A stretch of 33,308 bases of DNA. It comes from an uncultured Nitrospirales bacterium (lineage in GTDB: Bacteria > Hydrogenedentota > Hydrogenedentia > Hydrogenedentales > CAITNO01). Shown one piece after another: positions 5,930 through 28,206 of this stretch; the first letter of the stretch is position 1, and each line of letters opens with the position of its first letter. A model generated the notes under the pieces. The model was given only the letters and a program-made list of their open reading frames with translations, did no database searches and was not told the origin of the DNA. The stretch spans positions 1-33,308 of the forward strand of contig CAZOMH010000001.1 of NCBI GenBank assembly GCA_964580415.1, read 5' to 3'. A program made the position numbers and the translations under genes.

Positions 5930-8900
5930 CTATTTTCCCAACGCCTCCAGCGCTTCTTTGCACTTTTTCACATGCTCATCCTGCGCGGGCGTGACGGTAA
6001 TGAAGGTGGCGGGCGGGTCGGCGGCGCACAGTTGCGACGCGCCTTCCTGCCATTGTGTCCGCGCCTCTTCCGCGCGGCCCAGCGCCTGAAGCGTCTTGCC
6101 GTTCCAGTAACATATCTCGGCATCGGTGCGCTTGTAGCGCCGGCCCACGCCCAGGTTGGCGGGGTAGGTGAGCGCCGCCTGGAAATCGGCCAGCGCTTCC
6201 GCGTTCCTGCCCGCTTCGAGCCGCATTTTGCCCCGCTCCAGCAGCGCGGTCACCCAGGTGTCACGGGGCGCGGTGACACCTTCCCAGTTTGAAAAGCGCG
6301 CTTCGTTGAAGAAGGTGATGCAGTCGTCGTAGCGCTTCTCGTCCAGATAGGCCCTGCCCTGCCACAGGCCCAAATCATACCGCTTGAGCACGTCGCGCGG
6401 GAATTTTTCGGCCAGCAGTATTGCCTCCGGACGTTTGTTGAGGGCCGTGAGCACTTCTGCAAGATCGCGCAGCACAATCTGGTCGTTCGGCAGCGCCGCC
6501 AGCGCCTGGCGGTAACAGGATTCGGCCCTCTTCAGGTTGTTGCCCTTTTTCCAGCAGTGCAAACCGAGCAGACGCCACGCCTGGCCGGTGTTGGAATCGA
6601 GTTCGACCGATTTCTCCCAGCACGCAACCGCATCCTCAATGCGGTGCAGACCGGCCAGGGTGATGCCGAGCAGGTACTGCGCCCGGGCGTCCCCCGGCCG
6701 CGCTTTCACCGCCCACTGAAGCACCTCCAGCGCGTCCGTGCCGTGGGGGAAGAAGCGGGTCAGCGGCTTCCCCGGCGCCCGGTCCAGAAACGCGTCCCCG
6801 TCCTTCTCCTGACGGGCCAGACAGTAGGCCAGGAAATAGTCCGGATAAGGCCCGCAGTTCTGGAAAAAGTCGGTGCTGTCTCCGAGGCGCTGGAGAACCG
6901 TTTCCGCCTTGTCATACATGCCGAGGCTGGCGAGAAACGCCGCGGCGTCCAGCGCGGCGCATCCGGCATTCTGTCCCAGCATGCCGAGACGCCGGACACA
7001 GTCTTCGGGCGCGTTGATGGCGAGCCCCCGGATGACCGCGGTTAGGGTGCTTGTCGCGTCCGCCTCGTCCGTGTCGCGCGCGATGCTTTCGGCATTCCCG
7101 CCGGGGGAATAACGGAGTGCAAGGGCGGCAAGATACGGGCTGTTGCGCGCCTTGCCCGGGTGGACGCCCGCCGCCTGCTCAAACGCGGCCCGCGCCTCCC
7201 CGAAATGGTTCATCCGGGCCTCGGCGCGGCCGACCAGATTCAGCGCCGCGGCCGCGGCGCTGTCCAATTGCGCCGCTTTCGCGCCGCAGGCGCGCGCCTC
7301 TTCAAACCGCCCCTGGCGCAGGCAGGCAATTCCCAACTGGTACCATGCGGCGCCGTTTCCCGAATCCTTTTCCGTGGCCTTTCGGGCGTTGGCTTCGGCC
7401 TCGGGATAGCTCCCCTGCTCGTTGTCCAGCACGGCCAGGGCGCAAAGCGTCTTGACATGATCGGGGTCCGTGACGAGTGCCTTCTCGTATCCCTCGCGCG
7501 CCTTGACGGGGTTGGACTGGCTGTCAAGCAAGTACGCCTCCCGGAAGAGTTCGTCGGCGGTCCCGGCCGGTTTCTTCGCGAGATCGGGAGGCTCCACCCT
7601 CGGGATGGCCAGCGGCGTGTCGTATTCGAGCAGTGTTCCCTTTCCCTTTGACCAGACGCGCACATGGGCCGGGCCGTCGGCGACGGGCGCGGCCGTCACC
7701 CGGCAGGGTGCGGCCGGCGTGAGCGCTGCGGGACTTTCCGCCAGCACCCTGCCCCCCTGGCTGACTGTGCATAAGGCGTCTGGAAACAGGCCCGCGCCCA
7801 GAATGTCCAAAAACAGGGCGCCGTCCCGGCGCTCCGCCTGAACCACGGCGTCGCGCGTGGCGAATTCGAAACCCTGGCCGAGCCCGTGCGCCGGATACCA
7901 GCATTCGTTCCACTCCACCGATTCCTGCGGCTGGAGCATGCCGTAATCGGCCTGCGTGAGCAGCGGGCCGCTCTGTACCTCGATATACTGGCTCTCCTCG
8001 GGACCCGCTTCGGTCAGGGACATTTCGCTGGCGATCCCAAAATCGTCCCCGCCCCAGGTCCACGCCTTCTTGCCGGGAACCTTGTGGTGGTCCGCGGCGG
8101 ACACGATGCCGCGGTTCCGGCCGGCGTCGTAGGCGCCGAAAAAGTCAAAGTCCACCTTGTACCCGAAGACGGAGGTCATCGTCTCGTAGTTCTTGAGCCA
8201 GGTGATGTCCTTTCCCTTGAACTCGGGCCAGGTGAAGAAACTCGTCCCCGCGTGGTCGCACCCGAGCGTCATCGGATAGATGAACCGCGTGCCTTTCAGG
8301 CGGGGAAAGGACGTGTTGTTCCAGAAGTAATAGGGCTGCACACCGTCCGTGGGGTTGCTCAGGCGGATGCTCTCGTCAAGGCAGGCCCTGTCTTTCCACA
8401 GCGTCAGCCGCACTTCCCACCGCGTGCCAAAGGTCTTGTCCGCGGCGCCGACAATGATCGTCGCCTCCCCGCCGGCACCCGCGCACACTTTCCCGACAAC
8501 GGGTTCCATGATGAACACCGTGTGGCTTTGGGGCCCCGCGTTCCATTCGATGCCGCCCGATATCCACGCGCCCCGCATGGCGATGAGCGCGGGCTTGATC
8601 ACGTCGTTCTTGTGGAACATCTCCTCATTGGTCGTCTTGTCCAGGACAGAGTAGATGCGCCCGCCCAGTTCGGGAATGCAGGTCACCCGCAGAAAGGGGT
8701 TTTCCAGGTTCAGCGTCCTGTAGGTGCGGTCCTTCCTGACGCCAGTCAGGTAATCCTGCCGGGTCCAGGGATAGTAGATGAAGTTCTCGTACTCCTGAAA
8801 TACCGGGTGTCCGTCTTCCTCCCATCCGTAGGTGGGCAGGGTAATTTGGTCTTCCCAGTAGGCGAGCCCGTCCGACGCTTCGGGCCGTCCCGCCAAAGCC

Positions 8901-14352: not shown

Positions 14353-15582
14353 ATGAGCGCCCCCTTCGCGCCGCCGCGCGGTCCTGTCCGAAAACGGGCG
14401 TTGCTGATTGCGGCGGCGCTGCTGTTGCTGTGGCTCACCGCCATGGCCGTCTTGGGCCGGCAGACGTTAACCAACCTTGTCGTCGCCGGTCAACCGTTAC
14501 CGGCCGCAGCCGCCAATGTAGGACAGCCGCCCCCGGCTGTCGATCCCAACGCAGGACAGCCGCCCCCGGCTGCCGATCCCAATGTAGGACAGCCGCCCCC
14601 GGCTGCCGATCCCAATGTAGGACAGCCGCCCCCGGCTGTCAATCCCAATGGACAGCCGCCCCCCATACAGGTCTTTTTTGCCCCGCCCCAACCGGGCGAC
14701 CCCGATCCCATCGACCAGGCGCTGCTGGGCCTGCTCCAATCCGCACAGGTCTCCGTCGCATGCGCCTTTTACGAACTGGAACTGCCCGCCGCGGCCGACG
14801 CGCTGATCGCGCGGCACCAGGCCGGGGTGCGCGTGGGCATCGTGTCCGACAGCGACTACGCGGACCGGCCCGCCGTGCGCCGGTGCATCGAAGCGGGCAT
14901 TCCGGTGGTGTTCGACGAAAGACCGGCCTTCATGCACGACAAGTTCTGCGTGGTGGACGGGCGCTTCGTATGGACCGGCTCAACAAACATCACCGAAAAC
15001 TGCATGTACCGGAACAACAACAACTCGCTGCTCATCGACTCGGCCGAGCTGGCGAAAGATTATGCCGCCGAGTTCGGCGAGATGTTTGACACGCGCCGGT
15101 TCGGTCCCGGCTCGCCCGAGAACACGCCCTTTCCCGAAGTGACCCTTTCCGACGGCACCCGCGTGGAATGTTATTTCGCGCCCGAGGACGACGCCGGCAC
15201 GGCACTGGCCCGCTTTGCGGAATCGGCCCGCGAACGCATCGACTTCGCGGCCTTCTCCTTCACCTCGGCCGAACTCGCCGACGCCATGGCCGTCCGTATG
15301 CAGGCCGGCGTCCGGGTGCGCGGCGTCTTCGAAAAACGCGGCGCGAACGGAACCGCTTCCAAATTCAAGAAACTCGCCGGACTCGGCGCCGTGGTGCGCA
15401 CGGACAACAACCCCGCCAGCCTCCACGACAAATTCCTCGTTGTGGACAGCGCGTCGGTCGCCACCGGAAGCTTCAATTTCAGCCGCAATGCCGACGAACG
15501 CAACGACGAGAATCTGCTCATTGTCCACAACCCCGAAGTGGCCCGGAAATACGTCGGGGAAGTGGACCGGCTCATGAATTAA
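14353..15582 (+). CDS. Membrane-anchored phospholipase-D-superfamily protein with two HKD motifs
   Basis: Track ORF with an N-terminal anchor (ALLIAAALLLLWLTAMAVLG) and a Pro-rich repeat linker. The two HxK(x)4D motifs are MHDKFCVVDGRFVWTGSTNIT and LHDKFLVVDSASVATGSFNFS. Confidence 0.9.
   Translation: MSAPFAPPRGPVRKRALLIAAALLLLWLTAMAVLGRQTLTNLVVAGQPLPAAAANVGQPPPAVDPNAGQPPPAADPNVGQPPPAADPNVGQPPPAVNPNGQPPPIQVFFAPPQPGDPDPIDQALLGLLQSAQVSVACAFYELELPAAADALIARHQAGVRVGIVSDSDYADRPAVRRCIEAGIPVVFDERPAFMHDKFCVVDGRFVWTGSTNITENCMYRNNNNSLLIDSAELAKDYAAEFGEMFDTRRFGPGSPENTPFPEVTLSDGTRVECYFAPEDDAGTALARFAESARERIDFAAFSFTSAELADAMAVRMQAGVRVRGVFEKRGANGTASKFKKLAGLGAVVRTDNNPASLHDKFLVVDSASVATGSFNFSRNADERNDENLLIVHNPEVARKYVGEVDRLMN
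14514..14663 (+). repeat. Tandem 33-bp coding repeat, 4 full copies plus a partial one, encoding N(V/A)GQPPPA(A/V)(D/N)P
   Basis: aatgtaggacagccgcccccggctg(t/c)cgatccc repeats at 14514, 14547, 14580 and 14613, with a partial copy at 14646. It is in frame within the PLD-like gene. Confidence 0.9.
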
Positions 15583-23728: not shown

Positions 23729-23757
23729 TTGATTGGATTTCCGTGGCGCGATACAAT
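23729..23757 (+). promoter_or_regulatory. Putative sigma70-type promoter of the mcrBC-like operon
   Basis: TTGATT (23729-23734), 17-nt spacer, TACAAT (23752-23757). The SD AAGGGGG (23771-23777) and ATG 23782 follow. Confidence 0.5.
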
Positions 23758-23781
23758 CCATTCACTCAGAAAGGGGGCGCT

Positions 23782-26247
23782 ATGAGCTTCTCGTGGATTC
23801 CGATATACAGGGAATTGGCACAGGCGGTTCTGGCATACCAAGACCGCCAAGAGGATCTTCTGAACATACTGCGGGCGGCAAAACAAAAAGGGCTGCCGGT
23901 CATGTCAATACCGGATGAGGGTCCGCATCTGCGACAAGGTATTGATCCATTCTCCTTTTTTGCAGCATTCAACCGGGGGCAAACCCATTCAAATCGGCGG
24001 GAGATAATCGCGTACTTTCAGGACCGTCTTGGGCTCCAGACACAAACCCCGATTGACTTCGACGGCATACCCACAGCTGACAACAGAAGCTCGTTCTTCT
24101 TCTCGGCCAAGTCCGAGACCATGCAGGAGGACCTCCTCACCCTGTGGACTATGGCCTCGGAAGCATACGGAAAACGGGCGGAAGAAGTTTCTTCTGCGCT
24201 ATTCGACAAATGCCTGGGCATAAAAGGGATATCCGCGACCAATCTGACCATGGGGTGTTTCTGGATCAACCCGGAAGGATTTCTGGCCCTGGATGGCACC
24301 AATCGCGCATATTTCCCGCAGGAATTCAACATAGAATTGGGCGCGCGCAACCATACCGAATATGTCGCCCTGTTGGGCAGGGTGCATGAAGCTAGTCAGG
24401 ATTCCTACGCAGATATTTCGCTCGCAGCGTGGAAGTGGAGCAAATCGGTGCAATACTGGACGTTCACACCCGGTCGCAATGGATCAGAATGGGAAAGGTT
24501 TGTGCGGGAGGGGGTTATGGCGATTGACGAGCCTATTGGCGATCTCCTTGGTTGTCCCACGAAGGACAGAATCAAGAATGAATTACGCACGGCCACGGAA
24601 AAAGACTGGCCGTTCACAGTTCGTGCGCATGCATGCTGGGACTTCTCAAGAATCATTAAGCCAGGTGATGTCGTTTTTGCCAAGAAAGGATACTCGGAGG
24701 TTCTTGGTTACGGCATTGTCAGGGGTGACTATCGTCATGATCCAAGCCGCGATGACCACGCACACATTCGGGATGTCGAATGGCATGTACAGGGCGGACA
24801 TCTGGGGGAAGAGGGGGCAACGAAGCCTGCTTTTGCGGTCAAATTTCTGACGAACATTACACCCTGGCCTGACTTTGTCAAGGAGTTCTGTCTGTTGACG
24901 GGTTATGATCCGGGCAATTTGCGCAAATATTACTGGTTAAATGCAAACCCCAAAATCTGGTCATTTGAGAGCGTCATGGTGGGCGGGGAATGCACGTACA
25001 CCTCCACAAATGAACTGGGAAACAAGCGCAACAGATACAAGTGTTTTCAGGAGGCGCGACCGGGCGACATTCTCATTGGCTATGTGACCACGCCAAAGAG
25101 GGCCATCACGGCCATCTGTGAGATTACCAAGAGTTTGCATGCATCGGATGATGGCGAGGTCATTGCCTTCAAGAAGATCCGAAATGTCGCGGCGCCCGTG
25201 ACCTATGACGAGCTAAGGACAGACCCGGAAATTGCTGAAAGCGAACCCCTGAAAAGCGCCCAAGGAAGCCTTTTCAAGCTAACACAGAGCGAGTATGAGC
25301 ATGTCCTGAGAATGATAGACGAAAAGAATCCTGCCGAAACCGACCCGCCTGAACCACCGATTCCCTACACCGTGGACATGGCCATGGACGGTCTGTTTAT
25401 GGCGCGGCATGATTTTGAGGGGATTCTTGGGGCTCTGCGGGAGAAACACAATATCATCCTTCAAGGCGCACCCGGTGTTGGAAAGACCTTTGTGGCGGGG
25501 CGTGTCGCGTACGCGCTGATTGGGGAAAAGGCCAAAGACCGGGTCGAAATGATCCAGTTTCACCAGTCCTATTCGTACGAAGACTTTATCCAGGGGTACA
25601 GGCCCGTCTCAAACGGCGAACATCTGAAGTTCGAATTGAAAAATGGCGTGTTCTACAGATTCTGCCAGCGCGCTATTCAGAATCCGGAAAAGAACTTTGT
25701 GTTCATAATCGACGAGATCAACCGAGGCAACCTGAGCAAGATATTTGGCGAGTTGATGATGCTGATTGAACACGACAAGCGGGGAGATGAGTTTGCCGTG
25801 CCCTTGACCTACGGCGAAGGCAATCAAGCGCCGTTCTACGTTCCCAAGAATCTCTACCTGATAGGCATGATGAACACCGCAGACCGCTCTTTGGCGATGG
25901 TTGACTACGCCCTTCGCCGTCGTTTCCGTTTTGTCGAAATTGAACCGGGATTTGAAACAGAGGCCTTTCGCGCGCACCTGACCCAAACCAAGGGCGCATC
26001 GGCGGCATTGGTTCAGAAGATCATTGACCGCATGTCCGCTGTAAACGCGGATATCGCCGCCGACAACAAGAACCTGGGTCGCGGGTATCGTATAGGCCAC
26101 AGCTTCTTTTGCCCGGTGGACGGGTTGCACCCTGATGAGGACTGGTACGCGCGTGTTATCAAGAACGAAATTGTTCCCCTCCTGGAAGAATACTGGTTCG
26201 ACAATCCGGAGAAGGTGGAACGACACCGGGAAAGGCTGCTTTCCTAG
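23782..26247 (+). CDS. mcrB: McrB-like AAA+ GTPase subunit of a modification-dependent restriction system, with an N-terminal extension of about 530 aa (821 aa)
   Basis: Track ORF 23743..26247 trimmed to ATG 23782, because the -10 box lies inside the GTG-initiated extension. C-terminal motifs: Walker A GAPGVGKT (25465-25488), Walker B FVFIIDEINRGN, the McrB signature MNTADRS, and ALRRRFRF. N-terminal part: residues ~1-222 unrecognised, then ~223-375 and ~383-512 each look like PUA/EVE-type small beta-barrels. Confidence 0.9.
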   Translation: MSFSWIPIYRELAQAVLAYQDRQEDLLNILRAAKQKGLPVMSIPDEGPHLRQGIDPFSFFAAFNRGQTHSNRREIIAYFQDRLGLQTQTPIDFDGIPTADNRSSFFFSAKSETMQEDLLTLWTMASEAYGKRAEEVSSALFDKCLGIKGISATNLTMGCFWINPEGFLALDGTNRAYFPQEFNIELGARNHTEYVALLGRVHEASQDSYADISLAAWKWSKSVQYWTFTPGRNGSEWERFVREGVMAIDEPIGDLLGCPTKDRIKNELRTATEKDWPFTVRAHACWDFSRIIKPGDVVFAKKGYSEVLGYGIVRGDYRHDPSRDDHAHIRDVEWHVQGGHLGEEGATKPAFAVKFLTNITPWPDFVKEFCLLTGYDPGNLRKYYWLNANPKIWSFESVMVGGECTYTSTNELGNKRNRYKCFQEARPGDILIGYVTTPKRAITAICEITKSLHASDDGEVIAFKKIRNVAAPVTYDELRTDPEIAESEPLKSAQGSLFKLTQSEYEHVLRMIDEKNPAETDPPEPPIPYTVDMAMDGLFMARHDFEGILGALREKHNIILQGAPGVGKTFVAGRVAYALIGEKAKDRVEMIQFHQSYSYEDFIQGYRPVSNGEHLKFELKNGVFYRFCQRAIQNPEKNFVFIIDEINRGNLSKIFGELMMLIEHDKRGDEFAVPLTYGEGNQAPFYVPKNLYLIGMMNTADRSLAMVDYALRRRFRFVEIEPGFETEAFRAHLTQTKGASAALVQKIIDRMSAVNADIAADNKNLGRGYRIGHSFFCPVDGLHPDEDWYARVIKNEIVPLLEEYWFDNPEKVERHRERLLS

Positions 26248-26256
26248 CTGCTCTCA

Positions 26257-27300
26257 ATGACTCCCATCCCCATACAGAACATCTATTATCTGCTCTGCTA
26301 CGCTTGGGACAAACTGGCCGAGCGCGACATGGTATCCGTGGATACGCTTCCCTCCACGGACTTGGTAAATCTCTTTGCGCGGGTACTCATAAACGGCACG
26401 CAACTCCTCCTGAAACGCGGTCTGGACCGCAGTTACCTGTGCCAGGAAGAGTGGACATCCCGACTCCGTGGTCGGATTGGTTTTGACGAGACAGCTGGGG
26501 GACGCACTCATACCAGCGGGATACTCTCCTGTCGCTACGATGAAATGAGCCATGACATTCTGCACAACAGGATATTGAAGACCACGCTTGCCTCACTGGT
26601 ATGCATACAGGGCATGGAAGAGGAGAACATTCAAAGACTTTCCGGGCTTCTGAGACACCTTTCGGGTATTGGTCAGATCAGACTCAACGACAGAGTCTTT
26701 GGCGATGTGCGTCTCAATCGAAACAACCGGTTCTACGAATTCCTGATGTGCATCTGTGAGATTGTTTACCAGAATCTGTTGATTTCCGAAAACGGCGGCA
26801 AGGCCAGATTCAGGGATTTTGTCCGCGACGAAAAGCAAATGGCAAGTCTTTTCGAGGGCTTTGTCAGGAATTTCTATCGAACTCATGCTGCGGACAGATA
26901 CAAGAAAATAGGCCGAGAACAGATTCGCTGGCGGCTGAAGCCAGTTGAGGCGGGTTCGGCAGGATGGCTCCCAAAAATGGAGACGGATATCACCCTCACC
27001 TCAGACGTTCGCAAAGTCATTATCGACTGCAAGTACACGGCGCACATATTTCAGAACCATTTTGACAGCAAAACATTCAGGTCCGGGCATATGTACCAAG
27101 TCCATTCATACTTGGCCAATCTGCCGCAGGAGACTTTTGACAAATACGCGGATATCTCAGTCTTATTGCTTTATCCTGCGGTAACTGCGGAACATGCCCA
27201 CGAGTTTATCGACCCAAGGGGGTATCATTTCGGTATTCATACGATTAACCTTGCACAAGATTGGACGAAAATTCATCGCGATCTGCTTGCTTTGGTGTAA
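26257..27300 (+). CDS. mcrC: McrC-like endonuclease subunit (PD-(D/E)xK nuclease)
   Basis: Track ORF, 9 nt after the mcrB-like stop. N-terminal IQNIYYLLCYAWD is typical of McrC. Nuclease core: METDITLTSDVRKVIIDCKYT (D...DxK). Late MYQVHSYL. Confidence 0.88.
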   Translation: MTPIPIQNIYYLLCYAWDKLAERDMVSVDTLPSTDLVNLFARVLINGTQLLLKRGLDRSYLCQEEWTSRLRGRIGFDETAGGRTHTSGILSCRYDEMSHDILHNRILKTTLASLVCIQGMEEENIQRLSGLLRHLSGIGQIRLNDRVFGDVRLNRNNRFYEFLMCICEIVYQNLLISENGGKARFRDFVRDEKQMASLFEGFVRNFYRTHAADRYKKIGREQIRWRLKPVEAGSAGWLPKMETDITLTSDVRKVIIDCKYTAHIFQNHFDSKTFRSGHMYQVHSYLANLPQETFDKYADISVLLLYPAVTAEHAHEFIDPRGYHFGIHTINLAQDWTKIHRDLLALV

Positions 27301-27551
27301 GCGCCCCCTTTTCGTGGTTTCCAGGAGCGATTTAGGTGGTTTGGTGGTGGAGTCCCCATCTTGCGTATTCCGGCAATTCACATCTTTTCGACAAGCCATC
27401 ACGGATTCAATTATCGCTTATATATTTTACGAATAATACGGAAAAAGCGAATGCAAAAAATGTGGTAAATTTACTACGGCTGTCAGCAATGAATGTGGTT
27501 GCTAACGTTGTTATAGTCAGTGACTTAGATGTTTGAAAACCTCGGAGGTGT

Positions 27552-27581
27552 TTGACTGGTTGCGAAAACTAATGCTAACAT
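27552..27581 (+). promoter_or_regulatory. Possible sigma70-type promoter for hpf
   Basis: TTGACT (27552-27557), 18-nt spacer, TAACAT (27576-27581), about 58 nt before the hpf ATG. Confidence 0.3.
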
Positions 27582-27639
27582 CTGTCATTTGTGACCAATG
27601 TAAAAGGCATGTATGACCTTGCAGGGAGGTACTTTACCC

Positions 27640-28206
27640 ATGAACATCAAGATTACCGGACGCCACATGGAGCTGAGCGACGCGCTTAAGGCGTATATCG
27701 AGAGCGCGTTGAAGAAGGTGAAGGTGCATTTTGACAAGGTAATCGACGTGGACGTTGTTTTGGACGTGGAGAAACACCGGCACATCGCCGAAGTGAACCT
27801 GCACGCAAACGGCGTGCGCATTCACAGCAAGGAAGCCTCGTCGGACATGTACGCTTCGGTGGACGCGGTGCTGGAAAAGTTGGAGCGGCAGGCCCGCAAG
27901 TATAAAGACAGGATTAACTGCCACCAGCCCCGGACTGCCCGCGAGGAGCGTTCCTATCAGCTTGCGATTGTCGCCGTGGAGCCGACCAATGGTGACGGCG
28001 ATCACTCGGATCAGCCGGAAGACATCCATCTTGTGGTTAACCGGGAGAAACTGACTGTCAGGCCGTTGAGCCTGGAAGAGGCGGTTATGCAGTTCGAACT
28101 GGTTGACGATCCGTTTATCGTTTTCTTGAACGAGGATACGTCGCAGGTCAACGTCCTCTATTCCCGGGGTGACAAAACCTACGGACTGATTGAACCGGAG
28201 TTCTAG
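27640..28206 (+). CDS. hpf: Ribosome hibernation-promoting factor, long form (HPF / sigma-54 modulation protein family)
   Basis: Track ORF 27613..28206 trimmed to ATG 27640, with GGAGG about 10 nt upstream. Supporting segments: MNIKITGRHMELSDALKAYIE...HIAEVNLHANG...ASSDMYASVDAVLEKLERQARKYK, and the C-terminal dimerisation domain (KLTVRPLSLEEAVMQFELVDDPFIVFLN). Confidence 0.93.
   Translation: MNIKITGRHMELSDALKAYIESALKKVKVHFDKVIDVDVVLDVEKHRHIAEVNLHANGVRIHSKEASSDMYASVDAVLEKLERQARKYKDRINCHQPRTAREERSYQLAIVAVEPTNGDGDHSDQPEDIHLVVNREKLTVRPLSLEEAVMQFELVDDPFIVFLNEDTSQVNVLYSRGDKTYGLIEPEF

Follow-up and report, generated by a model that had tools for sequence, protein, structure and literature searches.

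The stretch of DNA analysed here, positions 1 to 33,308 of the forward strand of contig CAZOMH010000001.1 (33,308 nucleotides, assembly GCA_964580415.1, from an uncultured Nitrospirales bacterium; hereafter the window), carries an mcrB-like gene followed by mcrC. The pair is probably a solitary, horizontally acquired type IV McrBC cassette, the motor of which bears three tandem predicted readers that act independently of one another. In E. coli McrBC, McrB forms GTP-dependent hexamers that use their N-terminal domains to bind modified sites; after recruitment of McrC and translocation, McrC cleaves the DNA. In McrBC systems it is the N-terminal domain that decides which modified DNA is destroyed. 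The McrB of the window departs from E. coli McrB in exactly this part, in that the 5-methylcytosine reader of ~160 amino acids (aa), known as MrcB_N or DUF3578, is absent and ~530 aa with three other modules are present instead. An earlier note on this DNA, made from its letters alone, had described such an extension and had suggested that it could serve novel or combinatorial target recognition; the observation was confirmed, and the interpretation was partly supported. In a census of McrBC systems published in 2024, the branch of the E. coli type was set aside for later treatment (PMC11090510).

Motor, nuclease and EVE-type modules

The mechanical mcrB open reading frame opens at a GTG at 23743, with an ATG at 23782. 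The true start is judged to be this ATG because an AGGGGG Shine-Dalgarno sequence is located 5 nucleotides (nt) upstream of it, three independent metagenome gene calls agree on the 821-aa product and the homologues share the start M-x-F-[ST]-W, in which W5 is invariant. The two genes are co-directional, with a gap of 9 nt between the mcrB stop and the mcrC start. Along McrB, Pfam domains occur in the order DUF8425, DUF8426, EVE, AAA_5 and McrB_lid (Table 1); DUF8425 (PF28527), DUF8426 (PF28530) and McrB_lid (PF28529, at the McrB C terminus) are recent Pfam families and were seen as precomputed Pfam matches.

Table 1. Positions in the window of the McrBC cassette, its predicted domains and motifs, and the flanking repeat
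Feature	Position	Strand	Details
mcrB-like gene	23782..26247	+	821 aa; DUF8425 - DUF8426 - EVE - AAA_5 GTPase - McrB_lid
Module 1, DUF8425	23782..24447	+	aa 1-222; all-alpha, 10 helices; probable HhH-GPD/OGG-like base-sensing domain
Candidate HhH and 'GPD' Asp motif	24193..24327	+	aa 138-182; helix, hairpin (LGIKGIS), helix, Pro loop, Asp171
Module 2, DUF8426	24448..24921	+	aa 223-380; predicted divergent EVE/YTH-like PUA barrel (AF2 and Foldseek)
Module 3, EVE (PF01878)	24931..25314	+	aa 384-511; Pfam 32.9 bits, cut-off 23, E 7e-8
Linker between readers and GTPase	25315..25449	+	aa 512-556; between EVE and AAA_5 envelopes; Pro/Glu-rich stretch NPAETDPPEPPIP
McrB AAA+ GTPase core and McrB_lid	25450..26244	+	AAA_5 aa 557-715; McrB_lid to aa 821
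Walker A	25465-25488	+	GAPGVGKT, aa 562-569, K568
Walker B	25702-25725	+	FIIDEINR, aa 641-648 (FIIDEINRGN 641-650)
NxxD signature	25870-25890	+	MNTADRS, aa 697-703
mcrC	26257..27300	+	347 aa; PD-DxK core D244...D257-x-K259 at nt 26977-27036
Inverted repeat, left arm	23770..23781	.	AAAGGGGGCGCT; perfect 12 nt; holds the mcrB Shine-Dalgarno
Inverted repeat, right arm	27300..27311	.	AGCGCCCCCTTT; starts on the last base of the mcrC stop codon

All of the McrB hallmarks that the earlier note had placed in the C-terminal ~290 aa were found there, namely GAPGVGKT, FIIDEINRGN, MNTADRS and RRRFRF (aa 712-717, with RRRF at 712-715). Pfam AAA_5 matched aa 557-715 with an E-value of 1.4e-23, and the E. 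coli McrB structure 6hz4 matched over the whole GTPase domain (E 5.8e-107), with the 6ut3 family, of the Thermococcus gammatolerans McrB type, being more distant (E 1.1e-45). The NCBIfam equivalog for E. coli McrB covered aa 529-820 with 371 bits, which is under its full-length cut-off of 637 because the N terminus of the protein differs. By these matches, the GTPase is a close homologue of E. coli McrB in which all catalytic motifs are present. The following gene had been taken for an mcrC encoding a D...DxK nuclease core, and this identification was borne out: the 347-aa product matched Pfam McrBC (3.8e-31) and E. coli McrC (6hz4_M, E 1.4e-57), and it scored 335.3 bits with the NCBIfam McrC model, marginally under the cut-off of 338. 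Its segment METDITL...VIIDCKY was aligned to METDITI...LIVDAKY of E. coli McrC, and D244, D257 and K259 are therefore assigned to the PD-DxK core. Judged by these alignments, McrC is an intact, close homologue of the E. coli protein with complete catalytic motifs. Operon order, Walker A and B motifs, NxxD signature and RRRF are all shared between this locus and McrBC of E. coli K-12 (6hz4, 6ut6, 7vsr).

The N-terminal extension was examined for the domain found in E. coli. The MrcB_N/DUF3578 model (PF12102) gave no match to the full McrB or to any of its N-terminal segments at E <= 10, and because PF12102 was detected in two relatives (P0096 and P0109) the model itself works. MrcB_N was therefore rejected as the identity of the N terminus, which, as the earlier note had supposed, is not one such domain. 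The tripartite division proposed there likewise stood, with residues 1-222, 223-375 and 383-512 coinciding with DUF8425, DUF8426 and EVE (384-511), hereafter modules 1, 2 and 3.

Module 3 scored 32.9-34.7 bits with the Pfam EVE model (cut-off 23) and gave weak matches to 2gbs and 1zce among the sequences of the Protein Data Bank (PDB); by these scores, it is a canonical EVE domain. As the EVE domain and the McrB GTPase are found on one chain, the protein belongs to the EVE-McrB fusion class, which is the commonest EVE defence fusion and often includes additional domains (Bell et al. 2020, PMC7641849). In the fusions described in that work, EVE lies N-terminal to the McrB GTPase and McrC is adjacent, as here, whereas in the present McrB the EVE domain is preceded by an all-alpha domain and another EVE-like barrel, two extra modules that are undescribed there.

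The second barrel is module 2, a segment to which the Pfam EVE model gave no match. Its AlphaFold2 (AF2) model, built from a 72-sequence alignment, had a mean predicted local distance difference test score (pLDDT) of 91.8. When this model was searched with Foldseek, four PDB matches were obtained at E <= 1e-3, all of them EVE proteins; the EVE-HNH protein VcaM4I (6yex) was the best neighbour (E 1.9e-5), followed by PH1033 and MJECL36, and Atu2648 and YTH readers of N6-methylated adenine (m6A) were matched with a Foldseek probability of ~1.0. The candidate-defence model PDC-S02 of PADLOC matched aa 225-335 (3e-9), and hhalign linked module 2 to module 3 through a 'pGD-strand' core (P 2.3e-4). 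The EVE-protein neighbours, the PDC-S02 match and the hhalign link lead to the high-confidence prediction that module 2 forms another, divergent barrel of the EVE/YTH type and serves as a second reader. The combination of reader and nuclease is shared with VcaM4I, which, unlike this locus, is a single chain with one reader and no motor driven by nucleoside triphosphates. In T. gammatolerans McrB, as cited in PMC7641849, MrcB_N is likewise replaced by a PUA-superfamily reader, one that is YTH-like and reads m6A-DNA; this is its sole reader, compared with three predicted here, and its GTPase is more distant.

The YTH domains among the neighbours of module 2 also bear on the target. It has been proposed for the CoCoNuT branch of McrBC that modified RNA is attacked, and the EVE/YTH-like modules of this system could likewise read RNA modifications, since EVE/YTH domains bind modified RNA elsewhere, the neighbours of module 2 include m6A-RNA-binding YTH domains, and an RNA-directed action is predicted for those CoCoNuT McrB homologues that carry YTH-like domains (PMC11090510). 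However, the GTPase and McrC are of the E. coli K-12 type, as seen from the NxxD signature, the strong matches to E. coli McrB and McrC (E 5.8e-107 and 1.4e-57, respectively) and the intact PD-DxK motif; among the Pfam matches there were no coiled coils, no CSD or HEPN and nothing else that is typical of CoCoNuT; and the best neighbour of module 2 is the DNA-reading EVE domain of VcaM4I. An RNA target is thus considered very improbable, and modified DNA remains the favoured one.

Fold and function of module 1

Module 1 belongs to a large family that is found almost only at the N terminus of McrB GTPases, and its all-alpha structure is well predicted. Its AF2 model, from a 65-sequence alignment, had a mean pLDDT of 96 and ten helices. 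All of the top 50 Foldseek matches in the PDB were glycosylases of the helix-hairpin-helix (HhH)-GPD superfamily, representing at least 8 different proteins; these included human and mouse OGG1, the Ogg proteins of T. maritima, M. jannaschii and S. solfataricus, a clostridial Ogg, S. pombe Mag2, H. pylori MagIII, MutY and MutYX. Against the viral library BFVD, three of the four best matches were 3-methyladenine glycosylases, and the HhH-GPD superfamily made up 5 of the 50 listed matches, the others being unrelated or unnamed; all of them had E >= 0.12. In the AF2 model, helices 138-145 and 152-162 lie around the candidate hairpin, and Asp171 is at the N terminus of helix 172-182. Conservation across the family was high for P164 (222 of 231 members), D171 (218 of 231) and V/I150 (183 of 231), with G151 found in 111 of the 188 members that are ungapped at this position; divergent members have IPNVGVTK, LPNVGKAM or IPQVGLAK at the hairpin. 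The spacing of 20 between G151 and D171 equals that between G118 and D138 of EndoIII. Taken together, the fold neighbours and the motif make it rather likely that module 1 is derived from an HhH-GPD protein.

A domain of this ancestry has been described in another defence setting. The inactivated EndoIII/OGG1-like domain of END nucleases senses many hypermodified bases (PMC12191111, bioRxiv 2025.03.31.646159) and is fused to various effectors, 'the McrB-like GTPase' included (PMC12191111). The END sensor has a glycosylase-derived HhH fold, and the only structural neighbours of module 1 belong to the OGG/EndoIII superfamily, the two being likened by description and not by sequence. The END sensor reached significance against EndoIII/OGG in HHpred, whereas module 1 was not significant by hhalign (P 0.16 against E. 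coli EndoIII alone).

Several points weigh against this assignment and the reading of the cassette that is built on it. The best PDB match of module 1 was not significant (E 0.05, probability 0.84, TM-score 0.40-0.42, root mean square deviation > 11 Å). A search of PDB sequences with the single sequence of module 1 gave nothing significant, a 32-sequence profile gave nothing at E <= 10, and the 32 members matched no HhH-GPD or OGG-like family in Pfam at E <= 10. Nor was significance reached when the 231-sequence module 1 alignment was compared by hhalign with 83 EndoIII sequences, aligned from a genome scan (P 0.1). The register of the HhH and Asp described above was read by eye without statistical support, and the best, insignificant hhalign path of module 1 to EndoIII uses another one. 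The catalytic residues are described as lost from END sensors, but in the register read by eye module 1 keeps a candidate Asp; in this register it has no Lys at G+2, and position 154 is N here, the family of 231 having K at this position in 100 members and N in 73. Membership of the published iEndoIII-McrB class is putative. Insertion into the mcrB of the Deinococcus radiodurans MP1 replicon, which is of the module 1 type, had no transformation phenotype (PMC10085245); according to that paper, mcrBC of D. radiodurans has resisted deletion. Finally, neither binding specificity nor the OR/AND logic of the readers can be derived from sequence.

The retained Asp raises the question of whether module 1 could be an active, monofunctional DNA glycosylase that excises a modified base, McrBC then responding to the abasic site, or to the complex of glycosylase and DNA, as its signal or substrate. 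In the register read by eye, the Asp is at the expected HhH-GPD catalytic position, at a helix N terminus, in 218 of 231 members, and monofunctional HhH-GPD enzymes do not need a Lys. DNA glycosylases are also known as antiphage effectors, as in the case of Brig1 cited in PMC12191111. Activity is nonetheless improbable: the fold assignment is itself weak, in the HhH-GPD superfamily the Asp serves structurally as a helix cap as well, inactivation is described for the related END sensors, and module 1 always occurs with a separate nuclease or motor (McrB/McrC, HNH or FRG), which is the typical pattern of a sensor.

Conversely, module 1 might not read nucleic acid at all and might serve in regulation, oligomerisation or the sensing of phage proteins, with target choice left to the two EVE-like domains only. 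Such a role would be in keeping with the lack of any significant sequence link to a DNA-binding family and with structural matches under the usual significance levels. It is made improbable by minimal relatives (P0186 and P0193), in which module 1 is joined to the GTPase with no further domain and is found where McrB needs a DNA-binding domain, by the existence of a direct fusion to an HNH nuclease, and by the annotated structural neighbours near the tops of the lists, all of which are base-flipping DNA enzymes. Module 1 is accordingly still preferred as a predicted base sensor.

Distribution of the modules and proposed mechanism

A search with aa 1-530 returned 1,601 proteins at E <= 1e-3, and the four domains were mapped onto the best 120 clusters (90% identity). 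Sixty of these clusters had modules 1 and 2, EVE and GTPase in the order found here, typically in proteins of 805-860 aa with 25-65% identity per domain. In a further 41, an unrelated N-terminal domain (X) was followed by module 2, EVE and GTPase, and 15 had module 1, EVE and GTPase, with or without another insert such as Mrr_N; modules 1 and 2 directly before the GTPase were found in 2 clusters, as was MrcB_N with module 2 and EVE but without the GTPase. That X is a hidden module 1 was rejected, one marginal match (P0088, E 0.003) being all that was obtained. In two proteins with this architecture (P0054 and P0058), the first ~230-310 aa form a different, unannotated N-terminal domain, where the segment YFGKSAVSELAGYVFPEDFMFRNNRD resembles by eye the hairpin, helix and Pro loop of module 1 with no Asp there; this domain may be a paralogous sensor.

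The locus is therefore an ordinary member of a widespread class, the layout of which is common and catalogued by Pfam as two DUFs and EVE; conceptually, it is akin to the known EVE-McrB fusions and to the END sensors. Of the earlier proposal, the likeness of the three modules to readers of modified bases stood, whereas the suggestion that their layout might be unusual did not, given its frequency among the best clusters and the existence of a Pfam family for every module. The layout does not appear to have been assigned to a characterised McrB subtype, as no paper was found in the literature that characterises this subtype or names DUF8425, DUF8426, PF28527, PF28530 or PF28529.

Module 1 itself is far more widely distributed. 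Its profile, searched against 1.84 billion representatives, gave 3,079 clusters, 1,385 of them at E <= 1e-30, and among 146 of the best clusters it was N-terminal and nearly always on an McrB GTPase, minimal proteins of 532-554 aa with module 1 and the GTPase included. Outside McrB, DUF8425 was found fused to an HNH endonuclease (P0254, 466 aa) and, on Bacteroides plasmids, to an FRG domain (L085:1977-3461, WP_254028306); these proteins look like single-chain modification-dependent enzymes built on this sensor.

Rearrangements were also observed within the McrB homologues. Some of the proteins P0121-P0129 (e.g. P0126, 1368 aa) have two or three tandem copies of DUF8425, and others have DUF8426 inside the GTPase, which echoes the GTPase-domain insertions of the 2024 McrBC census. 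In the megaplasmid MP1 of D. radiodurans R1 (NC_000958.1, L084 5977-8895), a culturable model organism, a DUF8426-like segment is likewise inserted in the GTPase domain. Although the annotation places the start of the 'McrB family protein' of MP1 at locus position 6286, the frame is open, and the match to module 1 extends, from near 5977-6001, so that this McrB probably has a full DUF8425 N terminus and an annotated start that is too late.

For each module, relatives exist in which it accompanies the GTPase while one or both of the other modules are missing, and positions are freely swapped, so that independent readers seem more likely than an obligate three-part code. Recognition may be combinatorial, as the earlier note suggested; in our reading, the three readers would work independently and would widen the range of recognised modifications (OR logic). 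The modules would be flexibly tethered readers that flip a modified base out of the invading DNA and bind it. For module 1, an HhH-GPD fold of glycosylase origin would do this in the manner of the inactivated EndoIII/OGG sensors in END nucleases, and modules 2 and 3 would read bases as the EVE domain of VcaM4I does. GTP-bound McrB hexamers would then recruit McrC and translocate, and the PD-DxK site of McrC would cut the DNA. With up to 18 readers per hexamer, added avidity on densely modified phage DNA is plausible as a further effect.

Genomic setting and significance

The status of the cassette as a horizontally acquired island is suggested by its G+C content, which is 0.52 over 24-27 kb compared with about 0.63 in both flanks, and by the homologous cassettes, which are lone mcrB-mcrC pairs in unrelated neighbourhoods. 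The cassette of the window is flanked by housekeeping genes. No tRNA genes were found in the whole window, and no methyltransferase or defence domains in the other window open reading frames tested. A larger defence island was rejected because the frames tested were without defence domains and the downstream genes are housekeeping genes. An empty-site search via the downstream hpf gene matched only contigs identical to the window and gave no island borders. Both mcrB and mcrC look intact and appear to form a solitary cassette.

A perfect 12-nt inverted repeat was observed to bracket the two genes exactly, the left arm ending one base before the ATG. By our estimate, about 0.6 such repeats are expected by chance in this 4.6-kb region, and it is the placement that is striking. 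The repeat could be a cassette end, or its arms could pair over a long range and so hide the ribosome-binding site. That it is a conserved end of such cassettes was rejected, because two homologous cassettes lack it. Downstream, mcrC and hpf are separated by an AT-rich spacer of 330 bp (27311-27640; G+C 0.485 in the 27-28 kb bin) with a palindrome, GTGGTAAATTTACTAC, at 27462-27477 and a sigma-70-like promoter match with a TG extension at 27552-27581. This spacer is probably the native hpf promoter region. Elsewhere in the window, positions 14353-15582 code for a protein of 409 aa that has two PLD-like domains (PLDc_2, 4.9e-42); an enzyme of the cardiolipin-synthase type is its most likely identity, ahead of a PLD nuclease.

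The value of the locus is mainly that it points to DUF8425 as a large predicted family of McrB readers, which is among the commonest McrB N-terminal domains and yet is labelled a 'domain of unknown function'. It belongs to a widespread McrBC subclass that appears to stack up to three different reader folds per motor, swapped freely between relatives. In the unlikely event that DUF8425 is not only glycosylase-derived but has also kept its catalytic Asp and enzymatic activity, a very large class of McrBC systems, with ~3,000 representative clusters and D. radiodurans MP1 among them, would excise or covalently capture hypermodified bases and link this step to cleavage driven by GTP, and with two EVE-type readers alongside, one enzyme would cover several chemically unrelated phage DNA modifications. 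If DUF8425 is a glycosylase-derived sensor like those of END nucleases, the systems that carry it might be able to recognise a broad range of hypermodified phage DNA, which would have a bearing on host range in phage therapy and might provide reagents for the detection of modified bases.

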